This document shows, piece after piece, positions 31,401 to 50,757 of a DNA stretch of 64,000 bases. Each line of letters begins with the position of its first letter. The stretch's first letter is position 1. The position numbers and the translations under genes were made by a program. Under the pieces are notes generated by a model. It did no database searches. It worked only from the letters and a program-made list of their open reading frames with translations, and was not told where the DNA came from. Source of the DNA: Candidatus Omnitrophota bacterium (GTDB lineage: Bacteria; Omnitrophota; Gorgyraeia; B26-G9; JBDRCZ01); contig JBDRCZ010000056.1 in the NCBI GenBank assembly GCA_043821285.1, positions 792 through 64,791 on the forward strand, in the 5' to 3' direction.

Positions 31401-33036
31401 ATCCGTGCAGGAAGTTGGAACGGCAAAAATACAGGTAACTGCACAAGCTGACAAATACGCAGATGTCATGGAAAGGACATATCCTGTATATGAACACGGC
31501 ATGGAAAAATTTATTGCCAGAGCCGGTAAACTGCGCGCGGATGAGGCTGTCTTAACCCTTGATCTGCCTAAAGAGCGCGGTAAGGGGTCAACGATAATGC
31601 AGGTGCAGCTTAGCCCGAGCATGGCAGTTACCATGCTCGATAGCCTGCCGTATTTGATTGATTATCCTTACGGGTGCGTGGAGCAGACCATGAGCCGGTT
31701 TTTGCCGGCAGCAATTTGTTTAAATACGCTTAAAGATTTAGGACTGGATCCGGATACGGTTATGCGTAAAATTTTCGGCGGTATTGAGCCGGCATATACG
31801 GAAAAGACACACAGTAAAGGAAAACAGGATTTAAATAAATTAAATGACATGATTAAAAAAGGCATGGAGCGTTTATATGATTTTCAGCATTCAGACGGCA
31901 GCTGGGGCTGGTGGAAAGAAGGAGAGAGTGATCATTTTATGAGCGCTTATGTTCTCTGGGGGCTTTCGTTAGCGCATCAGGCGCGGGTGGAGGTAAAAAG
32001 AAATATTATTGAGCGCGGAGCCGCTTATTTAGAAAAAGAGATCGTAGAGGAAGAGGACAATTATGATCTTCAGGCATGGATACTGCACGCATTATCTAAT
32101 TACCGCGCGGTCTTTGATAAAGGCCGGGCTAAGGAATTTGAGCAAAAGGCATTGGATAATCTTTGGAAAAACCGGGACAAGTTAAACGCTTATACCCGGG
32201 CACTGCTGTCCTTGTCCGCGCATAATTTCAAAGACGAAGAAAAGGCACGAATTCTGGTACGCAATCTGGAAAACGGGGTAAAGACAGATGATACCCCGGA
32301 CACTTCAGCGATCCAGCGCGGCAGCCAAAAGTCAGAGGAGGCAGTTATTGGTACCGCACATTGGGGAGAGGATGGTATCTACTGGCGCTGGTCAGACGGC
32401 GGGGTTGAGGCAACCGCGTTTGCTTTAAAGGCGCTGGTGACAATAGACCCTGAGAATAAGCTGATTGAGCCGGTAAGTAACTGGCTGTTAAAAAACCGGC
32501 GCGGCAGTCAGTGGAAAAGTACCCGGGATACAGCGATTGTAATCATGGCCTTTAATGATTATTTAAAACAAAGCGGCGAAAGGATTGAGACGGTAATCAC
32601 GATTGAGGCAAAGAATAATTATGAATACCTTGTGTTTGAGGATTTAAAGCCAGCGGGTTTTGAAGCAGTACAGGTAAAAAGCGGGGAGCCGATGTATGCA
32701 AAAGAGCTAAAATCTGCGGCAGTTGAACGGAGTTTTGGCAATACAGTGAAGAAAAAATCCGCGGTTTTAGAATCTAATTCCTTAACCGGTGTACCGTTAT
32801 CTGGTCAGGAGGATACGGAATATACCGGCCGGACCCGCTGGGTATACCAGGAACTACGCGACCGCAAGACAGCCTTATTTATCGATAAACTGCCGGAAGG
32901 GGTTTGGGAAATACGCTATGAATTAAGGGCAGAGGTTCCGGGCAGGTTTCATGTCCTGCCAATAACCGGGTACGCGATGTATGTGCCGGAAATCCGGGCA
33001 AACGGCCAGGAGATTAGGGTTGAGGTGAGTGAATAA
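28423..33036 (+). CDS. Alpha-2-macroglobulin family protein with intact thioester (CVEQ)
   Basis: MG domains, YPYGCVEQTMSRF thioester motif, C-terminal receptor-binding-like domain. TTG start. No signal peptide detected. Confidence 0.85.
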   Translation: MFKPSFRQNLLYSQKTCLLNASACNDLKTNQSQIWRKTLFTRLKNQKLPMGAYILEANASGKKSRQLLLVSNAACVLKTSPSQALVYFCNANDGAPIADAVVCLWERFYSNGNWQWIEQKKNTDKNGLCVFDLKSADNRKEIFAAAVRENQQAFSLGSSDNYRRNDLLWKVYAFCDRPAYRPNETVQWKIFARAYDQGGYSTPANKKIKYQIYDPRNTKIKEEMVGLNSFGSAWGELELTEVMPLGEYRVNFYSVETLPGGKKEEYIGSAVLFRLEEYKLPEFKVSISTPLENGKKKIFQTGGIVEAKIQADYYFGGPVANADVEVLVYQNPFYHFWYPERDYPWYYKDMQTSYEQYRNYRGGQIVKREQIKTDVQGRAIVKFQSPQNSGGDFEYRIEARVTDSSRREIIAQDTVKVTMQGYYVYLKNKHNLIKPQDKVEIDIKTLDANNQPYLAQGTIKVTRDYWFEIWVAPDGREIKGQELELLRKKHELFPPQTSSGSKDWQLKFRGYEQEEILTRTIKTDEQGEAEFSFVPEHEGYYCVNWYSKDKRKNPINAQTTVWAADNQTTELGYRHGGVEIIIDKDTFKSGQTAPIMLSVPVNDRYVLFSVEADDFYSYELLHLKGTVKFIELPIKESHVPNIFLSAVMVSDQQIFIDTKQVVVPPVEHFIDVAVNADKAQYQPQESGKFWVMTKDHKGNPVSCELALGVVDESVYYIQSDYDLDPREFFYGQKRSAHIQTQSTFNQKSYICLVRGANEQLVDVRYKGNRQDWNEEGDVGGKYSAVSLDGRLGFDASTLREVCKSEVAVEEMSGIKKCISAGSMDFYDDKAKEDFEQKPVIDKNGIFSPSQGASAAVQVRSDFRSTIFWQPDIVTDKNGRAEVDVNFADSLTAWKACARVLSPVNQFGIAYTSVRTKKPLIVRLQAPRFFVVGDMAAVSGVINNNTDENLTVTPVLKVKGLVISGLYSGGRVVKGEQGPVKVKANSQERVDWAISVQEVGTAKIQVTAQADKYADVMERTYPVYEHGMEKFIARAGKLRADEAVLTLDLPKERGKGSTIMQVQLSPSMAVTMLDSLPYLIDYPYGCVEQTMSRFLPAAICLNTLKDLGLDPDTVMRKIFGGIEPAYTEKTHSKGKQDLNKLNDMIKKGMERLYDFQHSDGSWGWWKEGESDHFMSAYVLWGLSLAHQARVEVKRNIIERGAAYLEKEIVEEEDNYDLQAWILHALSNYRAVFDKGRAKEFEQKALDNLWKNRDKLNAYTRALLSLSAHNFKDEEKARILVRNLENGVKTDDTPDTSAIQRGSQKSEEAVIGTAHWGEDGIYWRWSDGGVEATAFALKALVTIDPENKLIEPVSNWLLKNRRGSQWKSTRDTAIVIMAFNDYLKQSGERIETVITIEAKNNYEYLVFEDLKPAGFEAVQVKSGEPMYAKELKSAAVERSFGNTVKKKSAVLESNSLTGVPLSGQEDTEYTGRTRWVYQELRDRKTALFIDKLPEGVWEIRYELRAEVPGRFHVLPITGYAMYVPEIRANGQEIRVEVSE

Positions 33037-33349
33037 AAATTTATCCGCGGAAGCTTTAGCAAAGGGGAATAAATTTTTTGTGCGAAGCAAAAAAAATATG
33101 GGTCAAAACAAAACACGGGGGTCAGCTATTTAGATTTTTATCAACCCCGCATGTGCGGGATTTCGCTTAATGCATATATTAAGATTCTCAAGAAAAAACA
33201 TCCTAACAATTAGATGATGCCTTATAAAAATTTGTCAAATCACCCATAGCTGATTAAAAAGAAAGCATAATGCCTAATTTTAAGATAAAAAGGAAAAAAG
33301 AGTTTTAAAAAGCAAGGATTATGCGGTATAATTGTTGTAGGGAGATTAA

Positions 33350-33490
33350 AATGAATGACGATACCAACACATTACTTGAATCATTGTTGAGAGTATCTCG
33401 TTTAAAGTCGGTGGGAAATGTTTTCACCAAATTGCTGGAGAAAAATAGTATTACAAAACGATGTTTTGCTACGAGAGGTGAATATGCATG
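33350..33490 (+). CDS. small hypothetical ORF (46 aa) overlapping the start of the hypA-like gene
   Basis: Its stop overlaps the ATG of the next gene (ATGCATGA). No recognisable family. Confidence 0.25.
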
Positions 33491-33726
33491 AATCACATTT
33501 GATTGAACCGATAATCAAGGGAATCGCGGAACACGCAGAAAAAGAAGGAGCGCGTGTCGTATCTAGGGTAAGGTTAAAAGTCGGAGAGTTTACCGGGGTG
33601 CGTGAGGAATCATTCCGCGAGACATTTGCTGTTTTGGCAAAAGGGACGGTGCTTGAAAATGCCGAGCTTGAAGTTACCTTTTTTCCTGGGTCAAGGATAG
33701 AGGTGGTATCATTCGACATAGAATAG
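33484..33726 (+). CDS. HypA-like hydrogenase nickel-incorporation protein lacking the zinc-finger domain
   Basis: Begins MHE (the nickel-binding N-terminus of HypA) and follows HypA spacing (RVRLKVGEFTGV). It ends without any CxxC pairs. Confidence 0.55.
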   Translation: MHESHLIEPIIKGIAEHAEKEGARVVSRVRLKVGEFTGVREESFRETFAVLAKGTVLENAELEVTFFPGSRIEVVSFDIE

Positions 33727-33811
33727 CCAAGGTCAGCGATAAGAATGAGTAATGAAATAACAAGGGGTCGATTCGATAATAGTAATGAAGAGAAAGTCTG
33801 TAGACCTTAAA

Positions 33812-33936
33812 TCCAAATGACAAATCCCAAATGACAAATGGAAAAACTTAAATGTTTTTCTTTTTAAAGATTGAAATATTTAAAGATTCATTTGCCTGTC
33901 TGTCGCAGGCAGGGATTTTGTCATTTGGAATTTGAC
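33812..33936. promoter_or_regulatory. Inverted-repeat / palindromic operator-like region (TCCAAATGACAAATCCC ... GGGATTTTGTCATTTGGA; TGTCA-N9-TGACA) upstream of the hypC-hydE fusion
   Basis: Visible in the sequence, 90-210 bp upstream of 34026. Confidence 0.35.
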
Positions 33937-34025
33937 ATTGCCGGTATATTGCCTTATCAGGCAGTATGCATGTTAATTATAATGAGTTATTAGATGTTGA
34001 TTATATGTTATGGAGCATGAATGCC

Positions 34026-35327
34026 ATGTGTTACGCGATTCCGGGAAAAGTGGAGGAAATATACGAGAAAATAGTTATCGTTGATTATTTTGGCGAGAAA
34101 AAAAAGGCGATTAATGAATTTTACGATATCCGTAAAGGTGATTATATTTCTGCTCAGGGCGGATATGTGATAAAAAAGGTGGACCCGGTTGAGGCAGAAG
34201 GTATTTTAGCTGCATGGCATGAGCTTTTTTTTGAGCTTCAGGATATTGACTTACGTCTTTCGCGATTGGATCTTAAAGAGAAAGGTATAGATAGGAAACT
34301 CGCGGTTATTCTGGACCATGCCTTAGAAAATATACCGCTCTCAAAAGAAGAGCTCGTGTATTTGTTTAACTTAAGCGAGCGCGGGGGAATTGAGATTGTT
34401 TGTAAAACTGCCAATTTTCTCCGCCAGAAATATTTAAAAAATTCCTGTTGCGTGCACGGGATAATAGAAATTTCGAATTATTGTACACAGGGTTGTATGT
34501 ATTGCGGCATTTCTTACCATAACCGCCATCTTTTACGCTACCGCATGAGCCCGGAGGAAATAGTCGAAACCGCAATTGAGGCAATAGATGGATTTGGGTT
34601 TAAGGCACTGGTGTTACAAAGCGGGGAAGATGTAGATTACCCGGTAGATAAACTGGCAGATATTATAAGAAAAATAAAGGAAAAAGGCGGGGTCCTTATT
34701 TGTATAAGTTTTGGCGAAGTCGGAATAGCTGGACTTGAACAATTATACGATGCCGGGGCACGGGCGCTGTTACTGCGCTTTGAAACATCAAATCCAGATA
34801 TTTATAAGAAACTGCATCCAAAGCGAAGTTTGGATACACGGCTTGGGCATCTTCATCAGGCCGCAAATATGGGGTATCTGATTATGACCGGCTCGCTTAT
34901 TGGTTTACCGGATCAGACAAAAGAAGATATTATTGAGGATATATATAAGGTTAAGGAGTTGGGGGCAGAAATGTATTCTTTTGGTCCGTTTTTGCCGCAT
35001 CCACAGACCCCCTTATCTAATAATCAGCCCCCAACCGAAGATGAGATGCTGAAAACTCTATCTATTGCCAGGCTCGTTGACCCGGCCAATGCCAAGATTT
35101 TAGTAACTACGGCCTTTGAGACTTTAAGCGCTAATGCGCGTAGAATGGGGCTTCTTTCCGGAGCTAATTCCCTAATGCTCAATCTGACCCCGCTTAAATA
35201 CAGAAAACAATATTCTATTTATCCAAACCGGGCATATTGCCGTGAAACAATTGGCAATCAGGTTGAAAAAACTATTGACCTGCTTAAATCTCTGGGGCGG
35301 GCACCTACGGATTTGGGAGTTAGTTAA
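34026..35327 (+). CDS. hydE: HypC/HupF-domain fused to [FeFe]-hydrogenase maturase HydE (radical SAM)
   Basis: N-terminal MCYAIPGKV (HypC signature with Cys2) through EAEGILAAW, then continuous in frame with a HydE-like radical SAM region (CTQGCMYCG, RYRMSPEEIV, LVLQSGED, GPFLPHPQTPL). GGAG RBS lies 12 nt upstream of the ATG at 34026. Confidence 0.75.
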   Translation: MCYAIPGKVEEIYEKIVIVDYFGEKKKAINEFYDIRKGDYISAQGGYVIKKVDPVEAEGILAAWHELFFELQDIDLRLSRLDLKEKGIDRKLAVILDHALENIPLSKEELVYLFNLSERGGIEIVCKTANFLRQKYLKNSCCVHGIIEISNYCTQGCMYCGISYHNRHLLRYRMSPEEIVETAIEAIDGFGFKALVLQSGEDVDYPVDKLADIIRKIKEKGGVLICISFGEVGIAGLEQLYDAGARALLLRFETSNPDIYKKLHPKRSLDTRLGHLHQAANMGYLIMTGSLIGLPDQTKEDIIEDIYKVKELGAEMYSFGPFLPHPQTPLSNNQPPTEDEMLKTLSIARLVDPANAKILVTTAFETLSANARRMGLLSGANSLMLNLTPLKYRKQYSIYPNRAYCRETIGNQVEKTIDLLKSLGRAPTDLGVS

Positions 35328-35337
35328 GGTTAATTTT

Positions 35338-35994
35338 ATGAAAGAAAGCGGTAAGAAAAGAGACAAGTTTTCTTTAGAGACGATTAAGCGTTTGGGTCTA
35401 TATCTGCGTAATTTAAAAAAGCTTAAAGCACAAGATATAGACATTATCTCTTCTGATAAATTAACACAATTGCTTAATGTTGCCCCTACGCAGTTTCGAA
35501 AGGATCTGTCCTGCTTTGGCGGGTTTGGGAAGCGGGGAGTGGGATATAATGTAGAAAGATTGATTGAAGAGATAGAAAATATTTTAGGGGTAAATAAAGA
35601 ATGGAAAATTATCATTGTTGGTGCAGGAAGGCTGGGCAGTGCCCTTTTGGGATATGATGGATTTTCTAAGTTTAATATAAAAATAGCCTATGCTTTTGAT
35701 GTCAGCGAGAAGAAGGCGGGGAAGCACAGAAAAGGAATCAAGATTTATAATTTAAAACACATAAAAGAGGTTATAAAAAATAATAATATTAAGATTGCAA
35801 TAATCACTACTCCTGCGGAAGCAGCACAGGATATAGCAGACAAATTAACGTCTACCGGGATAAAGGGCATTTTAAACTTTACCCCGATAATTTTGCAGGT
35901 GCCTAAAGATGTGCTGGTATCTAATGTGGATATGGCTTGCGAGCTTGAGAGTTTAATATTCTTTGCCAAGCAAAGATATATTGGAGATGAATAA
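35338..35994 (+). CDS. rex: Redox-sensing transcriptional repressor Rex
   Basis: Winged-helix N-domain (TIKRLGLYLRNL...QFRKDLSCFGGFGKRGVGYNV) and Rossmann motif IIVGAGRLG. Confidence 0.85.
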   Translation: MKESGKKRDKFSLETIKRLGLYLRNLKKLKAQDIDIISSDKLTQLLNVAPTQFRKDLSCFGGFGKRGVGYNVERLIEEIENILGVNKEWKIIIVGAGRLGSALLGYDGFSKFNIKIAYAFDVSEKKAGKHRKGIKIYNLKHIKEVIKNNNIKIAIITTPAEAAQDIADKLTSTGIKGILNFTPIILQVPKDVLVSNVDMACELESLIFFAKQRYIGDE

Positions 35995-36575
35995 TGGATG
36001 AGGTTACCGGGATAATTCTTGCCGGCGGCAAAAGCACAAGAATGGGCAAAGATAAATCTTTTATCCCGGTGTATGGACGGCCGATTATCGAAATAGTTAT
36101 AGATAAAATATCGTCTTTAACTAGTCAATTATTGATTATAACCAATAAACCGTGTCTTTACCGTAAATATGGCATAAAAACAAAAAAGGACATACTTCAC
36201 GAACACGGCTCTTTAGGCGGGATATATACGAGTTTAGTTTTCTCAAAAACAGTGTATAATCTTATTACCGCCTGTGACATGCCTTTTATAAACATGGAGG
36301 TTGCGCGTTATATGATTAGGATTATGCCGGGGTATGATTGCGTAGTTTTACGATGGCGAAGGAGATTAGAACCTTTATTTGCGATATATTCTAAACATTG
36401 TATCCGGACAATAGAAGACCAGCTAAAAAAGAAAAATTTAAAGATTAGTGATATATTTTCGAACTTAAAGACAAAAATAATCATGGGAAAAGAGATTAGG
36501 CGGTTTGATCCATGTGGCCGTTCTTTTGTAAATATAAATACACGGCAAGATGCCTTGCCATTTTCTGATAGCTGA
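35994..36575 (+). CDS. mobA: Molybdenum cofactor guanylyltransferase
   Basis: GIILAGGKSTRMGKDK nucleotidyltransferase motif and about 190-aa size. Confidence 0.75.
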   Translation: MDEVTGIILAGGKSTRMGKDKSFIPVYGRPIIEIVIDKISSLTSQLLIITNKPCLYRKYGIKTKKDILHEHGSLGGIYTSLVFSKTVYNLITACDMPFINMEVARYMIRIMPGYDCVVLRWRRRLEPLFAIYSKHCIRTIEDQLKKKNLKISDIFSNLKTKIIMGKEIRRFDPCGRSFVNINTRQDALPFSDS

Positions 36576-36580
36576 AGAAA

Positions 36581-36620
36581 ACACGCAGATTATTTAGATA
36601 GTTGTTTTGAAAATAAATAA
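36581..36620. repeat. Degenerate family A element (aaaacacgcagattatttagatagttgttttgaaaataaat)
   Basis: Shares the CAGAT units and the gttgttttgaaaa tail with 3991-4010. Confidence 0.5.
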
Positions 36621-36632
36621 GTTATTAATACA

Positions 36633-36821
36633 CGTATTGCGTATTGAGTATCGAGTATTGAGCATAAAAACTAAAAGGATGACAACAAGAAAATTGCCTC
36701 CGGTGATAACCTTCTGCGATTTTCAGCGGTTAGGAAAGTGTTTTACTTATGCCCGCAAGGGTATAAGGGTATACTTTCCTATACCATAAAAACGCAATAC
36801 TCACGACACAATACACAATAC
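36633..36821. mobile_element. MITE-like element bounded by imperfect inverted termini (GTATTGCGTATTGAGTATCGAGTATTGAGC ... GCAATACTCACGACACAATACACAATAC)
   Basis: The termini are reverse complements of each other. A solo terminus copy (GGGTATTGCGTATTGAG) lies at 45445-45464. Confidence 0.4.
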
Positions 36822-36836
36822 AAAAACTATGATAAT

Positions 36837-37319
36837 ATGTATAAAGTTGCTGTGCTTACAATAAGTGACAGGTGCTCAAAAGGGGAGCAAGAGGATAAAA
36901 GCGGTAAAGTTCTCCATGAGATTGCTGTAGGAATGCCCGCGCAGGTTATAAAATACGAAATTGTTCCGGATGAGCCGGAACAAATTAAAGAGAAACTTAT
37001 CGCCTATTGCGACGAGTTGAAAGTGGATTTAGTGCTTACTACCGGAGGCACGGGTTTAGGTTGTCGGGACTTTACTCCTGAGGCAACGGAAGAAGTTATC
37101 GAAAGAAAAGTCCCCGGCATACCTGAGGCAATGCGTGTTATTTATATAAATATCACAAAACATGCAATGCTATCCAGGGGAATTGCCGGGATCAGAGGAA
37201 AGACTTTGATTGTTAATTTACCGGGCAGCGCTAAAGGCGCCAGGGAGTCTTTGGAAGCAGTGTTCGAAGGTTTACGGCATGGTTTAGAAATGATCGAGGG
37301 AAAAGAACATCATGGCTAA
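36837..37319 (+). CDS. mogA: Molybdopterin adenylyltransferase MogA/MoaB family
   Basis: VLTISDR, LVLTTGGTG motifs and about 160-aa size. Confidence 0.8.
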   Translation: MYKVAVLTISDRCSKGEQEDKSGKVLHEIAVGMPAQVIKYEIVPDEPEQIKEKLIAYCDELKVDLVLTTGGTGLGCRDFTPEATEEVIERKVPGIPEAMRVIYINITKHAMLSRGIAGIRGKTLIVNLPGSAKGARESLEAVFEGLRHGLEMIEGKEHHG

Positions 37320-38682
37320 AGTGATTGATCAGGAACAGATTGGGGATATATTAAAAGAGACAAAAAATCCATCTTTTTCTGAAACCTATGCGGTTATTAC
37401 AAAAGCCGAAGAAAAAAAAGGTCTGAGCCAAAAAGATACCGCGGTTTTATTAAATTGTCAGGATGAAAAAATAATCAAAAATATATTTGATCTGGCAAAA
37501 AAGATAAAGAATGACATATATGGGGAAAGACTGGTGTTATTTGCGCCTTTGTATGTCAGCAATGCCTGCAACAATAACTGCCTTTATTGCGGTTTTCGCC
37601 AGGATAATAAAAATTTTAAAAGAACGACTTTAAACTTTGAGGAAATAGAGCAAGAGGTTAGAATGCTTGAGTCGAGAGGGCATAAGCGCGTTCTTTTAGT
37701 TTCCGGAGAAGCCGTAGGTTTTGATTATTTGCAGAAGGCAATAAAAACAGTTTACCAGACGAAAAACGGGACTGGCGAAATAAGACGGGTTAACGTTAAT
37801 TGCGCCCCCCTTACGGCTGATGAGTTTAAAGAATTAAAAAAATGCGGTATTGGAACTTATCAGCTTTTTCAGGAGACATACCACCGGCCGACTTATACGA
37901 AAATGCATCCTTCCGGACCAAAGGCCGATTATAATAATAGAATTTCTGCGATTGACCGGGCAATTGCCGCGGGGATTGATGATGTGGGAATTGGTGTCTT
38001 ATTTGGTTTATATGATTATCGGTTCGAGATTCTGGGGTTACTTTCGCACATTGCTCATTTAGAAAAAAATTTTGGCATTGGCCCGCATACAATTTCCGTA
38101 CCGCGTCTTGAGCCGGCAGCAGGTTCGGTTGTTTCCGTAAAGCCGCCGTATCCGGTAAGCGACCAGGAACTAAAAAAGATTGTTGCGATTTTGCGTTTAG
38201 CGGTTCCTTATACCGGTATTATTTTATCAACCAGAGAGAATAAAGAGTTAAGGAATGAACTTTTTTCTTTTGGCGTTTCTCAAATCAGTGCGGGTTCTTC
38301 TACCCAGCCGGGCGGATACTCCAAAGAAAAAGGCCTGGAACAATTTTCTTTATCGGATAAGCGTTCAATGTCAGAGGTTATTATTGACGTTTTAAAATTG
38401 GGCTATCTGCCAAGTTTTTGTACAGCCTGTTACCGTCTTGGCCGCACCGGTGAAGATTTTATGGCATTTGCGAAAAAAGGTGAAATACATAAATTTTGCC
38501 TGCCGAATTGTCTGCTTACATTCAGTGAGTATCTTACGGATTACGCAACTAAAGAGGAAAAGATATTAGGAGATAAGGTTATTCGTGAACAGATGGAGTT
38601 TATTCCGCTAACTTCTCTACGCAGAAAAATAGAACACAAATTAGATCTGGTACAATCCGGCAAACGCGACTTATATTTTTAA
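37312..38682 (+). CDS. hydG: [FeFe]-hydrogenase maturase HydG (radical SAM tyrosine lyase)
   Basis: N-terminal radical SAM CNNNCLYCGF. C-terminal CTAC-x22-C (C-x2-C-x22-C) auxiliary-cluster motif that distinguishes HydG from ThiH. Confidence 0.85.
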   Translation: MAKVIDQEQIGDILKETKNPSFSETYAVITKAEEKKGLSQKDTAVLLNCQDEKIIKNIFDLAKKIKNDIYGERLVLFAPLYVSNACNNNCLYCGFRQDNKNFKRTTLNFEEIEQEVRMLESRGHKRVLLVSGEAVGFDYLQKAIKTVYQTKNGTGEIRRVNVNCAPLTADEFKELKKCGIGTYQLFQETYHRPTYTKMHPSGPKADYNNRISAIDRAIAAGIDDVGIGVLFGLYDYRFEILGLLSHIAHLEKNFGIGPHTISVPRLEPAAGSVVSVKPPYPVSDQELKKIVAILRLAVPYTGIILSTRENKELRNELFSFGVSQISAGSSTQPGGYSKEKGLEQFSLSDKRSMSEVIIDVLKLGYLPSFCTACYRLGRTGEDFMAFAKKGEIHKFCLPNCLLTFSEYLTDYATKEEKILGDKVIREQMEFIPLTSLRRKIEHKLDLVQSGKRDLYF

Positions 38683-39237: not shown

Positions 39238-40053
39238 GTGGGATTAGATCAGGCGCAAATCGAGCGGTATTCAAGGCAGATTATCTTGCCAAATGTTGGC
39301 CGGCGGGGACAGGAAAAAATATTTAAATCAAAAGTGCTGATTATTGGTGCCGGAGGTCTGGGTTCACCTTCTGCCTTGTACCTTGCCTCAGCCGGCGTGG
39401 GGAGTCTGGGTATTGTTGACTCAGACGAGGTAGAGCTTAATAACCTGCATAGACAAGTTTTACATTCCACAAAAACTATCGGCATCGCAAAAGTAAAATC
39501 TGCTAAGCATAGACTTATGTCACTAAATCCTGATGTAAAAACTGTTACTTACAATACCAGAGTTACCGCAGATAATATTTCTAATCTGATTAAGGGTTAT
39601 GATATAATCGTAGATGCATCTGATAATTTCCCCACGCGATATTTAGCAAATGATGTTTGTGTTCTCTCAAAGAAACCATTTTCGCACGGCAGTGTATGCG
39701 AATTTGGCGGGCAGGTAATGACAATTGTCCCGGGGAAAAGTGCCTGTTACCGGTGTTTATTCCCTGAACCCCCGCCACCCGGACGCATGCCCAATAGTCA
39801 GGAAACAGGTATACTTGGTGTGGTTCCGGGTATAATTGGTACAATTCAGGCAAATGAAGTATTAAAATATATTTTAGGTATCGGCAATCTTCTAATTGGC
39901 AGACTGCTGGTGTTTGATGCGCTTAATTCTTCTTTTCGAGAGGTGAAAGTCAAAAGAGATAAAAATTGCATGGTGTGTAGTGAAAAATATCATGATAAGA
40001 AAAAAAAGATAATGCCACGGATTTACACGGATTGGACACGGATAAAAAAATAG
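39238..40053 (+). CDS. moeB: MoeB/ThiF-family E1-like adenylyltransferase
   Basis: GTG start. Rossmann motif IIGAGGLGS and CxxC pair (CYRC). The 3' end of the ORF reads through a family-D repeat (codons MPRIYTDWTRIKK). Confidence 0.8.
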   Translation: MGLDQAQIERYSRQIILPNVGRRGQEKIFKSKVLIIGAGGLGSPSALYLASAGVGSLGIVDSDEVELNNLHRQVLHSTKTIGIAKVKSAKHRLMSLNPDVKTVTYNTRVTADNISNLIKGYDIIVDASDNFPTRYLANDVCVLSKKPFSHGSVCEFGGQVMTIVPGKSACYRCLFPEPPPPGRMPNSQETGILGVVPGIIGTIQANEVLKYILGIGNLLIGRLLVFDALNSSFREVKVKRDKNCMVCSEKYHDKKKKIMPRIYTDWTRIKK

Positions 40054-40625: not shown

Positions 40626-41517
40626 GTAAACAGATTGTAGAGAAGCAGAGAAAGCTCGGTTGGGGAAAAGCCGTGGTTGAGAATCTGGCAGTTGATTTAC
40701 AAAAAGAATTTCCAGGTATACAGGGGTTTTCCGCGCAAAACCTCTGGCGTATGAAACAATTTTATCAGACTTATAAAAATAATGAAAAACTCTCACCAAT
40801 GGTGAGAGAAATAGGCTGGACGCATAATATGGTAATTATGATGAAGTGTAAAAATGATAACACGCGACAGTTTTATATCGGCATGACTAAAAAGTTCGGT
40901 TGGACTAAAAATATTCTTATTCATCAGATCGAAAATCAATCTTACGAGAAAACGTTTCTTAACCAAACTAATTTTGAAAAGACTGTTCCTATTAAAATAC
41001 GTAATCAGGCGAAACTAGCTGTTAAGGATGAATACACCTTTGATTTTCTTGAATTGGGCGATGAACATCTTGAAAACGAGCTTGAGCGGGCGCTCACGGC
41101 GAATGTGCGGAGATTTTTGCTGAGATGGGCGGCTATTTTTGTTTTGTTGGCAATCAGCATAGAATAGAAATAGACGGTAGAGAATATTTTGTAGATATTC
41201 TCTTGTATCATCGAAAATTACGGTGTCTGGTGGCAGTTGAGCTCAAGATTGGTGATTTTAAGCCTGAGTATGCAGGCAAAATACAATTTTATCTTTCCGC
41301 GCTTAATGATAGGAGTACGTTGAAAGAAGAAAATCCGGCTATTGGGATTATTATTTGTAAAAGCAAAAGCCGGACAGTAGTTGAATACGCCCTGAAAGAT
41401 GTTAATAAACCGATAGGTGTTTCAACCTATACGATCAAAAAATCTTTACCTAAGACGTTAAAGAAATATTTACCTTCATCAAAGGAATTGGCGGCAAGCG
41501 TAACGGTGGTGAAATGA
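40580..41517 (+). pseudogene. DUF1016/YhcG PD-(D/E)XK nuclease family gene, 5'-truncated and with a frameshift near 41140
   Basis: Frame 2 reads YWDIGKQIVEKQRKLGWGKA...FLL. A 1-nt shift is then needed to continue EMGGYFCFVGNQHRIEIDG...IGVSTY (the YhcG-like core). Confidence 0.6.
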
Positions 41518-48129: not shown

Positions 48130-50757
48130 GTGGCATTAAAAATATTAATCAATTTTGATATGAGCAGAAAAATAGTAAACCAAAGACACAAAGCAAAGCG
48201 GATTAAAAAATCGAAAATGATTAAAAAGATTTCTCATTTACGTAAGCCGGATGAATTATCATTAGAACAATGGCAGATAGTTTTAAGAAAACAAATTGCT
48301 TGTGCACAAAAAATGCGTATAAAAAACGTGGGTGAGAATGCAGTATTTTCGACATTTACAGTAACTAATCCTGTTTCACAAAAGACCTACCGTGTCGTTA
48401 TCTGCGGAGAGGAATTAGGGATTAATTATTGTTCTTGTCCTGATTTTTCGATTAATACTCTTGGTACTTGTAAACATATTGAAAATGTGTTACGGAAAGT
48501 TCGAAAAATGAAAGGCGGCAGACAACTGCTTAAGCAGGGGTTCCAGCCGGATTATTCTGCGGTAACTTTACGCTATGGTCTTAAAAGACGTGCGGCCTTT
48601 TTACTTGGGAAAAATGATAGTCGAAAACTAGTAAATTTAATTTTAGAATTTTTTGACGATGATTTATTCATTAAAGAAAAGGGTATCCGTCATTTTGCTG
48701 AATTTCAGAGACGCGCAGCTAAGTTAGATGGTCAGATTCAGTATCATGACGATGCGATTGAATATATTGCGCAAATTCGTGATCGAATTGCAAGAAAAGA
48801 AAAAATTGAGAAGGAATTTTCAAAGGGGGTTAATTCTCCACAATGGGGAACTTTACTTAAAACAGAATTATATCCATATCAAAAAGAAGGTGTACTTTTT
48901 GCGGTTTTAGCAGAGCGTAGTTTAATTGCCGATGAAATGGGTTTGGGAAAAACTATTCAAGCGATTGCGGCAAGTGAGATTATGGCGAGGTATTTCGGTA
49001 TTGAAAAGGTTCTGGTCATATGTCCGACAACTTTAAAATATCAGTGGAAAAATGAAATTAATCATTTTTCTCATTGTAAGGCACAGGTAATTCATGGGAT
49101 GTTGCTCGATCGGCATCGTCAATACGATGATTGTGCTAATGCCTTTTTCAAAATAACAAATTACGATGTTATCCATAGGGATATCGGGGCAATTATGAAA
49201 TGGGGGCCGGATTTGATTATATTGGATGAAGCGCAGCGAATTAAAAATTGGAAAACACGTCGCGCACAATCCGTAAAGCATTTAAAATCCACTTTTGCGA
49301 TTGTTCTTACCGGCACTCCAATAGAAAATCGTTTGGAAGAACTACATTCCATTGTTGAATTCATTGATCGGTATCATTTAGGGCCTCTTTTTCGATTCTT
49401 GCATAATCATCAGATTGTAAGCATAGAGGGAAAGATTACCGGATATAAAGATTTAAATAAAATAGGGAAGACTTTAGAAACCATAATGATCCGCCGAAAA
49501 AGTGAACAGGTATTAAAACAACTGCCAGAACGCATAGATAAAAATTTTTTTATCCCCTTGACGCGTCAACAAGAAGAAATTCATGAAGAATATAGGGTTA
49601 TGGTTGCCCGTCTTGTGACCAAATGGCAGAGATATCATTTTCTCTCGGAAGAGGACCGACAGCGTTTGATGATGGCGTTACAGAAGATGCGGATGGTATG
49701 TGATGATACATATTTGTTGGACCCAAGCACAAACTATGGGTATAAAATCGATGAATTGGAACTGCAGTTACGGGAAATTCTTGAAAATCCTAATGTAAAA
49801 GTAGTTATTTTTTCTCAGTGGTTGCGCATGATGGAATTAATTATAAACATGCTTAATGCCAATAAATGGGAATATGCCTTTTTGCATGGCGGAGTTCCTT
49901 CTGCAAAAAGAGGATGTTTAATTGAAAATTTTCATAATGATTTAACCTGTAGAATATTTTTATCAACAGAAGCAGGTAGCGTAGGACTTAATCTCCAAAA
50001 TGCAACATTTGTCGTAAATGTTGATTTACCATGGAATCCAGCAGTGTTAGAACAGCGGATTAGCCGGGTTTATCGATTAGGACAAGAATACCCTGTTCAT
50101 GTAATAAATTTAATTGCGGAAAGAAGTATTGAGCATGGTATCCTGGGATTGATTGGTTTTAAGAAATCGATGTTTTATGGAGTATTAGATAAAGGTGAGA
50201 ATGAAGTATTTATGGGAACAACCCGATTTAATAGATTTATCAAAACTGTGGAACAGGCTTCAAAGGCTATGGATGAACAAAAGAAAAATATTGAGAAGGA
50301 AGATGAGGATGAGGCATTGAGAGATAAGGAGTTGGCAAATCAAGTTGTCAACGACAATGAGAATGATATCTTACAGCAACAAGTATCTCCCAAAAGTTCT
50401 TCTACTCCGGCGGATTTTTCTGTGGCTCAAGAACATCTAGACTCTTCTAAAGTTAGTAATGATCCCCGTGGCGGTAGTGTTTCTGAAGCGGAAACCGTGT
50501 TAAAATCTATTTTTCAGCTTGGAGCGTCTTTTTTAGAGATATTAAGTAAATCTTTTGGTGAAGAGAAAATATCAGAAGCAAAAAATCAAGCGCGAATGAC
50601 GGGGCATCCCAAAAAACCTTTAGATATTAATTTATCAAAGGATAAAGAAACCGGCAGGCAAATTCTTCAAGTATTGCTGCCGGAAGACAAAACGATGAAA
50701 TTATTAACAAAGACTATTGGAAGAATGTATGAGGCTTTTAAAAAACATGTTGAGTGA
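48130..50757 (+). CDS. SWIM zinc-finger SNF2-family helicase
   Basis: CxCx(n)CxH SWIM (CSCPDFSINTLGTCKHIENV). SNF2 motifs LADEMGLGKT, DEAQRIKN, helicase C (QRISRVYRLGQ). True start may be an internal Met. Confidence 0.8.
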   Translation: MALKILINFDMSRKIVNQRHKAKRIKKSKMIKKISHLRKPDELSLEQWQIVLRKQIACAQKMRIKNVGENAVFSTFTVTNPVSQKTYRVVICGEELGINYCSCPDFSINTLGTCKHIENVLRKVRKMKGGRQLLKQGFQPDYSAVTLRYGLKRRAAFLLGKNDSRKLVNLILEFFDDDLFIKEKGIRHFAEFQRRAAKLDGQIQYHDDAIEYIAQIRDRIARKEKIEKEFSKGVNSPQWGTLLKTELYPYQKEGVLFAVLAERSLIADEMGLGKTIQAIAASEIMARYFGIEKVLVICPTTLKYQWKNEINHFSHCKAQVIHGMLLDRHRQYDDCANAFFKITNYDVIHRDIGAIMKWGPDLIILDEAQRIKNWKTRRAQSVKHLKSTFAIVLTGTPIENRLEELHSIVEFIDRYHLGPLFRFLHNHQIVSIEGKITGYKDLNKIGKTLETIMIRRKSEQVLKQLPERIDKNFFIPLTRQQEEIHEEYRVMVARLVTKWQRYHFLSEEDRQRLMMALQKMRMVCDDTYLLDPSTNYGYKIDELELQLREILENPNVKVVIFSQWLRMMELIINMLNANKWEYAFLHGGVPSAKRGCLIENFHNDLTCRIFLSTEAGSVGLNLQNATFVVNVDLPWNPAVLEQRISRVYRLGQEYPVHVINLIAERSIEHGILGLIGFKKSMFYGVLDKGENEVFMGTTRFNRFIKTVEQASKAMDEQKKNIEKEDEDEALRDKELANQVVNDNENDILQQQVSPKSSSTPADFSVAQEHLDSSKVSNDPRGGSVSEAETVLKSIFQLGASFLEILSKSFGEEKISEAKNQARMTGHPKKPLDINLSKDKETGRQILQVLLPEDKTMKLLTKTIGRMYEAFKKHVE

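Follow-up and report, generated by a model that had tools for sequence, protein, structure and literature searches.

Reviews, and a primary paper of 2026, describe HypA proteins as built to one conserved design, in which a nickel-binding architecture is combined with a zinc-binding one (PMC7055735, PMC12134894, PMC13202556), and our full-text literature searches found no description of a natural zinc-free HypA. Here we analyze a 64,000-nt stretch of contig JBDRCZ010000056.1 (hereafter the window; all coordinates are window positions), which encodes at 33484-33726 an 80-amino-acid (aa) HypA-like protein that we term HypA80. We consider it likely that this gene, hypA80, specifies a functional HypA-family nickel metallochaperone, as predicted from its sequence, that has been reduced to the nickel-binding domain, and that a 46-aa open reading frame (ORF) overlapping its start is most likely not a conserved gene. 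The feature, with the lines of evidence that define it, is as follows.

33484-33726, + strand: hypA80, a predicted 80-aa single-domain zinc-free HypA nickel metallochaperone (Pfam match, homologues, AlphaFold2 model, Foldseek search, and the ratio of nonsynonymous to synonymous substitution rates, dN/dS)

The ATG of hypA80 at 33484 is preceded by an intact Shine-Dalgarno-like ribosome-binding site, GAGAGGTG, and opens a frame of 80 codons that closes with a TAG stop at 33724-33726; the product, MHESHLIEPIIKGIAEHAEKEGARVVSRVRLKVGEFTGVREESFRETFAVLAKGTVLENAELEVTFFPGSRIEVVSFDIE, starts with MHESHLIEP and contains zero cysteines. A preliminary description of this DNA had recognized the MHE start as HypA-like and had stated that the protein terminates without the zinc domain. 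A profile search with the Pfam HypA family (PF01155) bears out the former point, as it returns a significant match (E=2.4e-15, 57 bits against a gathering score of 28.9) that is confined to profile positions 1-68 of 112. All 27 aligned family members carry H2 and E3 of the MHE nickel motif, and the zinc domain with its two CxxC pairs is absent throughout the 80-aa family. As the latter claim could have been upset by a frameshift, CxxC was sought in all three forward frames of 33640-34030; none was present, and therefore no zinc finger is concealed there.

The manner in which the zinc domain is missing becomes apparent upon structural comparison. A profile of the HypA80 family matches the HypA structures 3a43, 6g81 and 2kdx in the Protein Data Bank (PDB) over residues 1-64, with these residues corresponding to residues 1-64 of the Thermococcus kodakarensis protein and residues 1-62 aligning with Helicobacter pylori HypA. 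The AlphaFold2 model computed from the alignment of 27 family members (mean predicted local distance difference test score, pLDDT, 93.4) displays a helix at 4-20, a strand at 26-34, a second helix at 41-52 and strands at 61-67 and 72-79, which is the alpha/beta fold of the nickel domain. When this model was compared with the PDB using Foldseek, all 14 matches with E <= 0.001 were HypA chains, with query-normalized template-modelling (TM) scores mostly of 0.74-0.91 and the weakest of 0.71. In the best full alignment, to chain 3a43_B of T. kodakarensis (TM score 0.91, root-mean-square deviation 1.8 A, 113 columns), all 80 residues of HypA80 superpose and the zinc domain of the target appears as a gap, and residues 69-80 (GSRIEVVSFDIE) match the final beta-strand of canonical HypA, namely the one that follows the zinc ribbon. 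Given this superposition, GSRIEVVSFDIE is the canonical last strand and the nickel domain is complete. The absence of the Zn loop is thus confirmed by alignment with a characterized HypA, but the notion of a protein that simply stops early is not: in the model the zinc domain has been cut out from between the last two strands, leaving a complete nickel domain.

The protein is not an isolated oddity. A word-indexed search recovered 329 homologues of HypA80; among the best 120 of the 329 nearly all are exactly 80 aa long and 73-84% identical to it, and those bearing names are mostly annotated as “HypA” from Candidatus Omnitrophota. The 27-member alignment contains 23 invariant positions, including H2, E3, H5 and H17, and comparisons with five close relatives yield dN/dS values of 0.07-0.13, with dS saturated. 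hypA80 belongs to a real gene family under strong purifying selection.

We then examined the genomic contexts of the family. A scan of one genome per species yielded 80 hypA80 loci (designated L001 and so on), mostly from Omnitrophota metagenome-assembled genomes and including 4 closed chromosomes, in which ORFs were called and clustered and the cluster identities were confirmed via precomputed Pfam tables. Gene junctions, HypB and DNA homology were tallied over 87 hypA80 occurrences, with about 10 kb around each hypA80 and 1.3 Mb in total; the tallies of HypB and of the maturation cassettes described below pertain to these neighborhoods rather than to complete genomes. In 81 of the 87 occurrences the end of the gene for the endopeptidase HycI lies no more than 60 nt from the start of hypA80, and the octamer at this junction is ATGCATGA in 59, GTGCATGA in 8 and [AG]TGCACGA in 13 of the 81. 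About 60 loci display a common order comprising genes for NADHdh (MbhM-like, NuoH-like), an Oxidored_q6 small subunit, Complex1_30kDa (NuoC-like), the [NiFe] large subunit, eight Mrp antiporter subunits, a 2x[4Fe-4S] ferredoxin, HycI and HypA80. These operons of 13-14 genes specify an Mbh/Mrp-type (group 4) [NiFe] hydrogenase, with hypA80 at the operon end in most Omnitrophota loci, and their large subunits retain the CxxC...DPCxxC motifs, with RICGICSTSH near the N-terminus and, at the C-terminal end, DPCYCCTER and an extension of about 35 residues. The Mrp-linked Omnitrophota enzymes examined by Williams et al. were classed as group 4g (PMC8542988). Based on the fixed proximity to HycI and the shared operon order, we propose that HypA80 is the HypA of an Mbh/Mrp-type [NiFe] hydrogenase in these relatives. 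Genes for NikR, a His-rich Ni/Co transporter and Fur-family proteins also occur occasionally downstream in the 87 loci.

By extension, HypA80 of the window most likely acts as the chaperone that inserts nickel into a [NiFe] hydrogenase whose genes lie elsewhere in the genome. In such a role Ni(II) would be held by the N-terminal amine, His2 and Glu3, as in canonical HypA, and the family-invariant His5 may contribute an additional ligand. The protein would dock on an apo large subunit already carrying Fe(CN)2CO and hand over the nickel, whereupon HycI would cleave the C-terminal tail of the large subunit. These steps would proceed without the use of a zinc domain, and no operon-encoded HypB GTPase was seen.

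The small upstream ORF, which the preliminary description regarded as translationally coupled to hypA80, calls for a separate assessment. It lies within the following arrangement upstream of hypA80.

33304-33332, + strand: promoter-like site TTTAAA-17-TATAAT, a candidate promoter of the hypA80 operon located in the AT-rich gap that follows the gene for alpha-2-macroglobulin (10/12 matches in a scan for the consensus alone)
33351-33491, + strand: orphan ORF of 46 aa (56 aa from an ATG at 33321), the stop of which overlaps the hypA80 start by 8 nt as ATGCATGA

The overlap is real, and together with a GGGAG motif 6 nt ahead of the ATG, the promoter-like site just upstream and a frame longer than in 99.3-99.6% of shuffled sequences it could suggest a true small protein, or a leader peptide, whose translation is coupled to that of hypA80. 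We nonetheless hold this to be unlikely. The TGA that terminates the ORF is an unavoidable by-product of the hypA80 start, because a +2 reading of ATG-CAT-GAx, the codons for Met-His-Glu, always yields TGA; the hycI gene of relatives uses the same overlap junction, with [AG]TGCATGA in 67 of the 81 hycI-preceded occurrences, and it is hycI rather than a conserved small ORF that overlaps hypA80 in them. The 46-aa product matches no Pfam or NCBIfam family, and a search of 5.8 billion proteins returned neither a homologue nor the query itself, so that no source record appears to list it as a gene. Likewise, no DNA conservation was detected upstream of about 33467 across the 87 related loci. A derivation of the ORF from the 3' end of a lost hycI was also considered and rejected, as neither tblastn with HycI of L001 nor a HycI profile run against all frames of 32901-33495 gave a meaningful match (1.9 bits, in the wrong register). 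Thus, the 46-aa ORF is probably not a conserved gene and at most a lineage-specific leader ORF.

Several observations weigh against the interpretation favored here. HypA80 scores 56.6 bits with the NCBIfam HypA equivalog TIGR00100 and does not reach its cut-off of 88.1, a shortfall attributable to the absence of the zinc domain. Published work indicates that H. pylori HypA depends on its zinc-site cysteines for activity (PMC7055735), and the 2026 paper assigns the zinc site a structural role and deems it indispensable for interactions with partners (PMC13202556); a HypA without zinc must therefore operate in a somewhat different way. A G3E-type HypB was absent from the 10 kb around hypA80 in all 87 Omnitrophota-type loci, and the window contains no hydrogenase, hycI or nickel-uptake genes, leaving the client enzyme unseen there. 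With respect to the upstream ORF, when the 447 nt ahead of hypA80 were shuffled by mononucleotide, 0.4-0.7% of the resulting sequences had a frame of 46 or more codons open up to the same TGA (p about 0.005).

In light of these points two other explanations of hypA80 merit consideration. Its position apart from the usual operon, with hycI missing and non-homologous unique DNA on both sides, is what might be expected of a truncated or frameshifted pseudogene decaying after loss of the hydrogenase operon. However, the gene retains the 80-aa length, all 23 family-invariant residues and an intact ribosome-binding site, its downstream partner genes are intact, and no zinc-finger coding remnant exists in any frame; the low dN/dS together with the invariant residues leads us to reject a decaying remnant, which we regard as very improbable. 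The other explanation, implied by the preliminary description, is that HypA80 serves the [FeFe]-hydrogenase maturases, or another nickel or metal enzyme, instead of a [NiFe] hydrogenase. It takes its appeal from the window itself, where the only genes adjoining hypA80 are hydE- and hydG-like and [NiFe] genes are lacking. Yet, the orthologues are fixed behind hycI and the [NiFe] structural genes, and no gene for urease, carbon monoxide dehydrogenase (CODH) or another nickel enzyme was seen in the annotated hypA80 neighborhoods. Moreover, H-cluster assembly is not known to require nickel. We hold this explanation to be very improbable, and return to HypA80 as a [NiFe]-hydrogenase chaperone in considering how its gene is embedded in the window.

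A tblastn search of the 64-kb window detected no [NiFe] subunit, Mrp/Mbh subunit, HycI, HypB, HypD, HypE, HypF, NikR or Ni transporter, in agreement with the earlier statement that [NiFe]-hydrogenase structural genes are lacking from it, and the sole match was the HypC-like N-terminus of the gene following hypA80. A further weak tblastn match, of residues 44-64 of the L001 HypA80 to 49282-49344 inside an 875-aa ORF (48130-50757), has E = 0.024 and is probably due to chance. Upstream, beyond the gap, lies a gene for a 1537-aa alpha-2-macroglobulin. DNA homology to the 87 loci starts at about 33467-33484 and ends at 33726, so that the flanking stretches, 447 nt upstream and 299 nt downstream, are both unique to this genome. 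In the closest relative of the hypC::hydE gene described below (P0276, 72% identical) the order is mbh - hycI - hypA80 - hypC::hydE - rex - hydG, which indicates that the arrangement in the window is derived. In the window hypA80 has been separated from the hydrogenase operon, and it appears to head a unit of its own that begins with the promoter-like site and continues through hypC::hydE, rex, mobA, mogA and hydG. The features downstream of hypA80 are listed below.

33727-34025, no strand: 299-nt spacer between hypA80 and hypC::hydE (3 to about 235 nt in the related loci inspected; 3 nt in L001)
34026-35327, + strand: hypC::hydE, 433 aa, a HypC/HupF domain (MCYAIPGKV...) joined to a HydE-like radical S-adenosylmethionine (radical-SAM) enzyme (Pfam HupF_HypC 46 bits, threshold 28.5, plus Radical_SAM and BATS)
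35338-35994, + strand: rex, redox-sensing repressor (NCBIfam Rex 263 bits; likely start Met33 of the listed ORF)
35994-36575, + strand: mobA, molybdenum cofactor guanylyltransferase (Pfam NTP_transf_3; NCBIfam MobA models match below their cut-offs)
36837-37319, + strand: mogA/moaB-type molybdopterin adenylyltransferase (Pfam MoCF_biosynth 113 bits, TIGR00177 122 bits; likely start Met34 of the listed ORF)
37312-38682, + strand: hydG, radical-SAM tyrosine lyase making CO and CN- (TIGR03955 520 bits, cut-off 312)
39238-40053, + strand: thiF/moeB-type adenylyltransferase (Pfam ThiF 282 bits)

The spacer harbors a 23-nt inverted repeat, the arms of which (33816-33838 and 33917-33939) are 91% complementary, a 14-nt sequence, CCAAATGACAAAT(C/G), that occurs twice in tandem at 33813-33840, and two sites at which a hairpin is joined to a T-run (33891-33913 and 33944-33969). 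It could represent an inserted element of small size or a structure with a regulatory role. Both unique intergenic regions were searched for structured RNAs, riboswitches included, with no Rfam match at E <= 1; similarly, a scan for the Rex operator TTGTGAANNNNTTCACAA with up to 3 mismatches gave 12 matches in the window, none of them within 13767-44544. Farther downstream, a YhcG/DUF1016 PDDEXK nuclease is split between the overlapping ORFs 40673-41167 and 41125-41517 and looks frameshifted.

The molybdenum-cofactor genes, to which the thiF/moeB-type gene possibly belongs, are interleaved with the maturase genes in the window. Such genes recur within or beside the hydE/hydG cassette, at 35994-37319 and 39238-40053 in the window, at 13746-18233 in L010 and at 1-5305 in L092, and moeA, moaA, moaC, MOSC and modABC are found near the cassette elsewhere; downstream of the cassette in L001 come a formate transporter and a molybdopterin oxidoreductase. 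This association may reflect coupling to formate dehydrogenase, or may have another cause.

The true start of the hypC::hydE fusion is at 34026, as the mechanically called start at 33966 lies too far upstream and the protein aligns from residue 1 with the L001 fusion at 65% identity. Its HydE part scores 241 bits with TIGR03956, short of the equivalog cut-off of 254.6, and as a fusion it departs from the stand-alone HydE that acts with HydF and HydG. HydG exceeds its own cut-off and, as read in the translation, has an intact C-terminal CX2CX22C auxiliary-cluster motif (FCTAC-22 residues-C). The preliminary description correctly placed hypA80 next to these maturase genes, but called them FeFe maturases and the combination unusual; the neighborhood is recurrent, and in relatives the fusion and HydG go with [NiFe] operons. 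We observed the fusion in the window and in L001, L010, L027, L036, L039, L044, L050, L051, L053, L058, L063, L071, L074 and L090-L094, and the order hypC::hydE - rex - hydG also in L010, L027, L039, L050, L053, L071 and L090. More widely it forms >120 clusters at >=60% identity, of which the named ones are mostly from Omnitrophota. Usually with HydG nearby, it accompanies [NiFe] operons of three kinds, namely Mbh/Mrp group 4, group-3b-like and Tat-linked. Across the 80 loci and the window, hypA80 is followed by a short hypF - hypC - hypD - hypE in 47, by hypC::hydE (- rex) - hydG in 15, by both cassettes in 0 and by neither in 20, some of the last being on cut contigs.

The short HypF of about 360 aa (Pfam HypF_C) found in most Omnitrophota operons consists of the C-terminal Kae1-like part only and is devoid of the acylphosphatase, zinc-finger and YrdC domains, examples being L035 10221-11303 and about 45 other loci (cluster c11) as well as L082 10298-11380; the N-terminal part was seen only in L015, L042, L043 and L047.

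The distribution of the two cassettes raises the possibility that hypA80 - hypC::hydE - (rex) - hydG constitutes the core of an undescribed [NiFe]-cofactor maturation system, replacing HypD, HypE and HypF or at least supplying CO anaerobically; this we entertain as a tentative proposal that is more doubtful than probable. In one version of the steps, which is likewise speculative, HydG would make CO and CN- on iron and HypC::HydE would process the fragment or carry it on its HypC domain to the large subunit; in the concluding stage, possible but no better assured, HypA80 would add nickel without HypB and HycI would cleave. Our literature search found no description of a HypC-HydE fusion or of HydG/HydE in [NiFe] maturation, and where [NiFe] hydrogenases obtain their CO ligand in the absence of oxygen has yet to be settled (PMC12134894).

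Favoring such a route is the mutual exclusion of the two cassettes after hypA80, as is the company that the pair keeps with further [NiFe] hydrogenases, a group-3b-like enzyme in L092 and a Tat-linked one in L093, where a canonical 116-aa HypA and HypB are present. In L094 a standard HydF-HydG-HydE set with unfused HydE lies 5 kb upstream of a group-3b-like operon, within which a separate paralogous HypC::HydE, and only the fusion, follows hypA80. Apart from this HydF in L094, neither HydF nor HydA occurs within 10 kb in the loci with genes listed, and the HypC::HydE/HydG pair was not seen beside an [FeFe] hydrogenase in the relatives examined. In addition, Cys1 at the N-terminus of the fused HypC is kept in 15/15 fusions, and HydG is a bona fide member of its family. 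Against it, hypD, hypE, hypF, hydA and hydF may lie elsewhere in these genomes, of which only the loci were scanned, and the 20 loci with neither cassette imply that the maturation genes need not adjoin hypA80, which is equally found with the canonical short HypF-HypC-HypD-HypE set and hence not specific to the route. The stoichiometry is also unfavorable, as the HydG product has two CO and one CN- and the [NiFe] cofactor needs one CO and two CN-. In 15/15 fusions the conserved histidine of HypC (VHAGFA in sister loci, His51 in E. coli) is replaced by Gln, or by Ala in L001. Finally, the known role of HydE is in building the 2Fe unit in H-cluster assembly (PMC8855341). These gene neighborhoods suggest, short of proof, that HypC::HydE and HydG may take part in [NiFe]-cofactor ligand assembly.

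Returning to HypA80 as a zinc-free nickel chaperone, we surveyed such forms more broadly by searching 1.84 billion representatives at 50% identity exhaustively with HMMER, which gave 1193 hits at E <= 0.001. The best 150 of the 1193 include 55 short proteins of 74-92 aa with an MHE or VHE start and no CxxC, and 62 canonical forms (>=105 aa, two CxxC). One of the former, P0164 (80 aa), holds the hypA position in a hypA-hypB-hypF-hypC-hypD-hypE operon that neighbors HoxFUYH, and therefore a zinc-free HypA can stand in for HypA. MHEMH-type versions in L092 and L094, which share 38% identity with the window protein, lie behind HycI in group-3b-like operons. His5 is found in 28 of the 55 short forms (51%) versus 7 of the 62 canonical ones (11%; Fisher p = 5e-6), a difference that is a lead only, the sequences being phylogenetically non-independent. 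T. kodakarensis HypA relies on His98 to complete its high-affinity nickel site (PMC7055735), and His5 may be an extra nickel ligand that compensates for one near the zinc domain. In a tree of the N-terminal 66 residues the two forms interleave (>=21 parsimony changes), but in a poorly resolved topology that makes multiple losses of the zinc domain inseparable from noise.

A large natural family of zinc-free HypAs, strongly selected and fixed in [NiFe] operons, suggests that the nickel domain alone can suffice, and HypA80 offers a small cysteine-free test object for nickel delivery. The recurrent HypC::HydE/HydG neighborhood is the more novel lead of the two: if the HydG-dependent route were true, it would bear directly on the question of the anoxic CO ligand.

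Comparison with the known systems brings out both continuity and departure. Like canonical HypA and HybF (E. coli HypA and HybF; H. pylori 6G81/2KDX; T. kodakarensis 3A43/5AUN/5YXY), HypA80 has the N-terminal MHE nickel motif; its predicted two-helix, three-strand nickel-domain fold is that of the T. kodakarensis protein (TM 0.91 and deviation 1.8 to 3a43), to which it is 33-35% identical over 65-67 aligned nickel-domain residues, and in relatives its gene is placed in [NiFe] hydrogenase or maturation operons beside the endopeptidase gene, as is canonical hypA. Unlike canonical HypA, it is missing the entire zinc domain, an insert of about 35-55 residues (CxxC...CxxC) that separates the last two strands, and contains no cysteine, its family has invariant His5 and His17, and no HypB adjoins it in Omnitrophota loci. 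With the other zinc-free HypAs of about 80 aa (P0164 and those of L092 and L094) it shares length, domain content, the MHE(x)H start and a C-terminal strand that ends in ...SFD/E.E, and these too hold the hypA position in [NiFe] maturation gene sets; they differ in being <50% identical to the window protein and in belonging to different hydrogenase classes, with P0164 having a neighboring HypB and a full-length HypF. The HypC domain of the fusion resembles HypC/HybG/HupF in its N-terminal Cys and in passing PF01455, and differs in the replacement of the conserved His. Lastly, the HydE part (241 bits, TIGR03956) and HydG (520 bits, TIGR03955, with CX2CX22C) resemble the H-cluster maturases, but are set apart from them in having no HydF adjacent in most loci, in the fusion of HydE to HypC, and in the attachment of the pair to [NiFe] operons.

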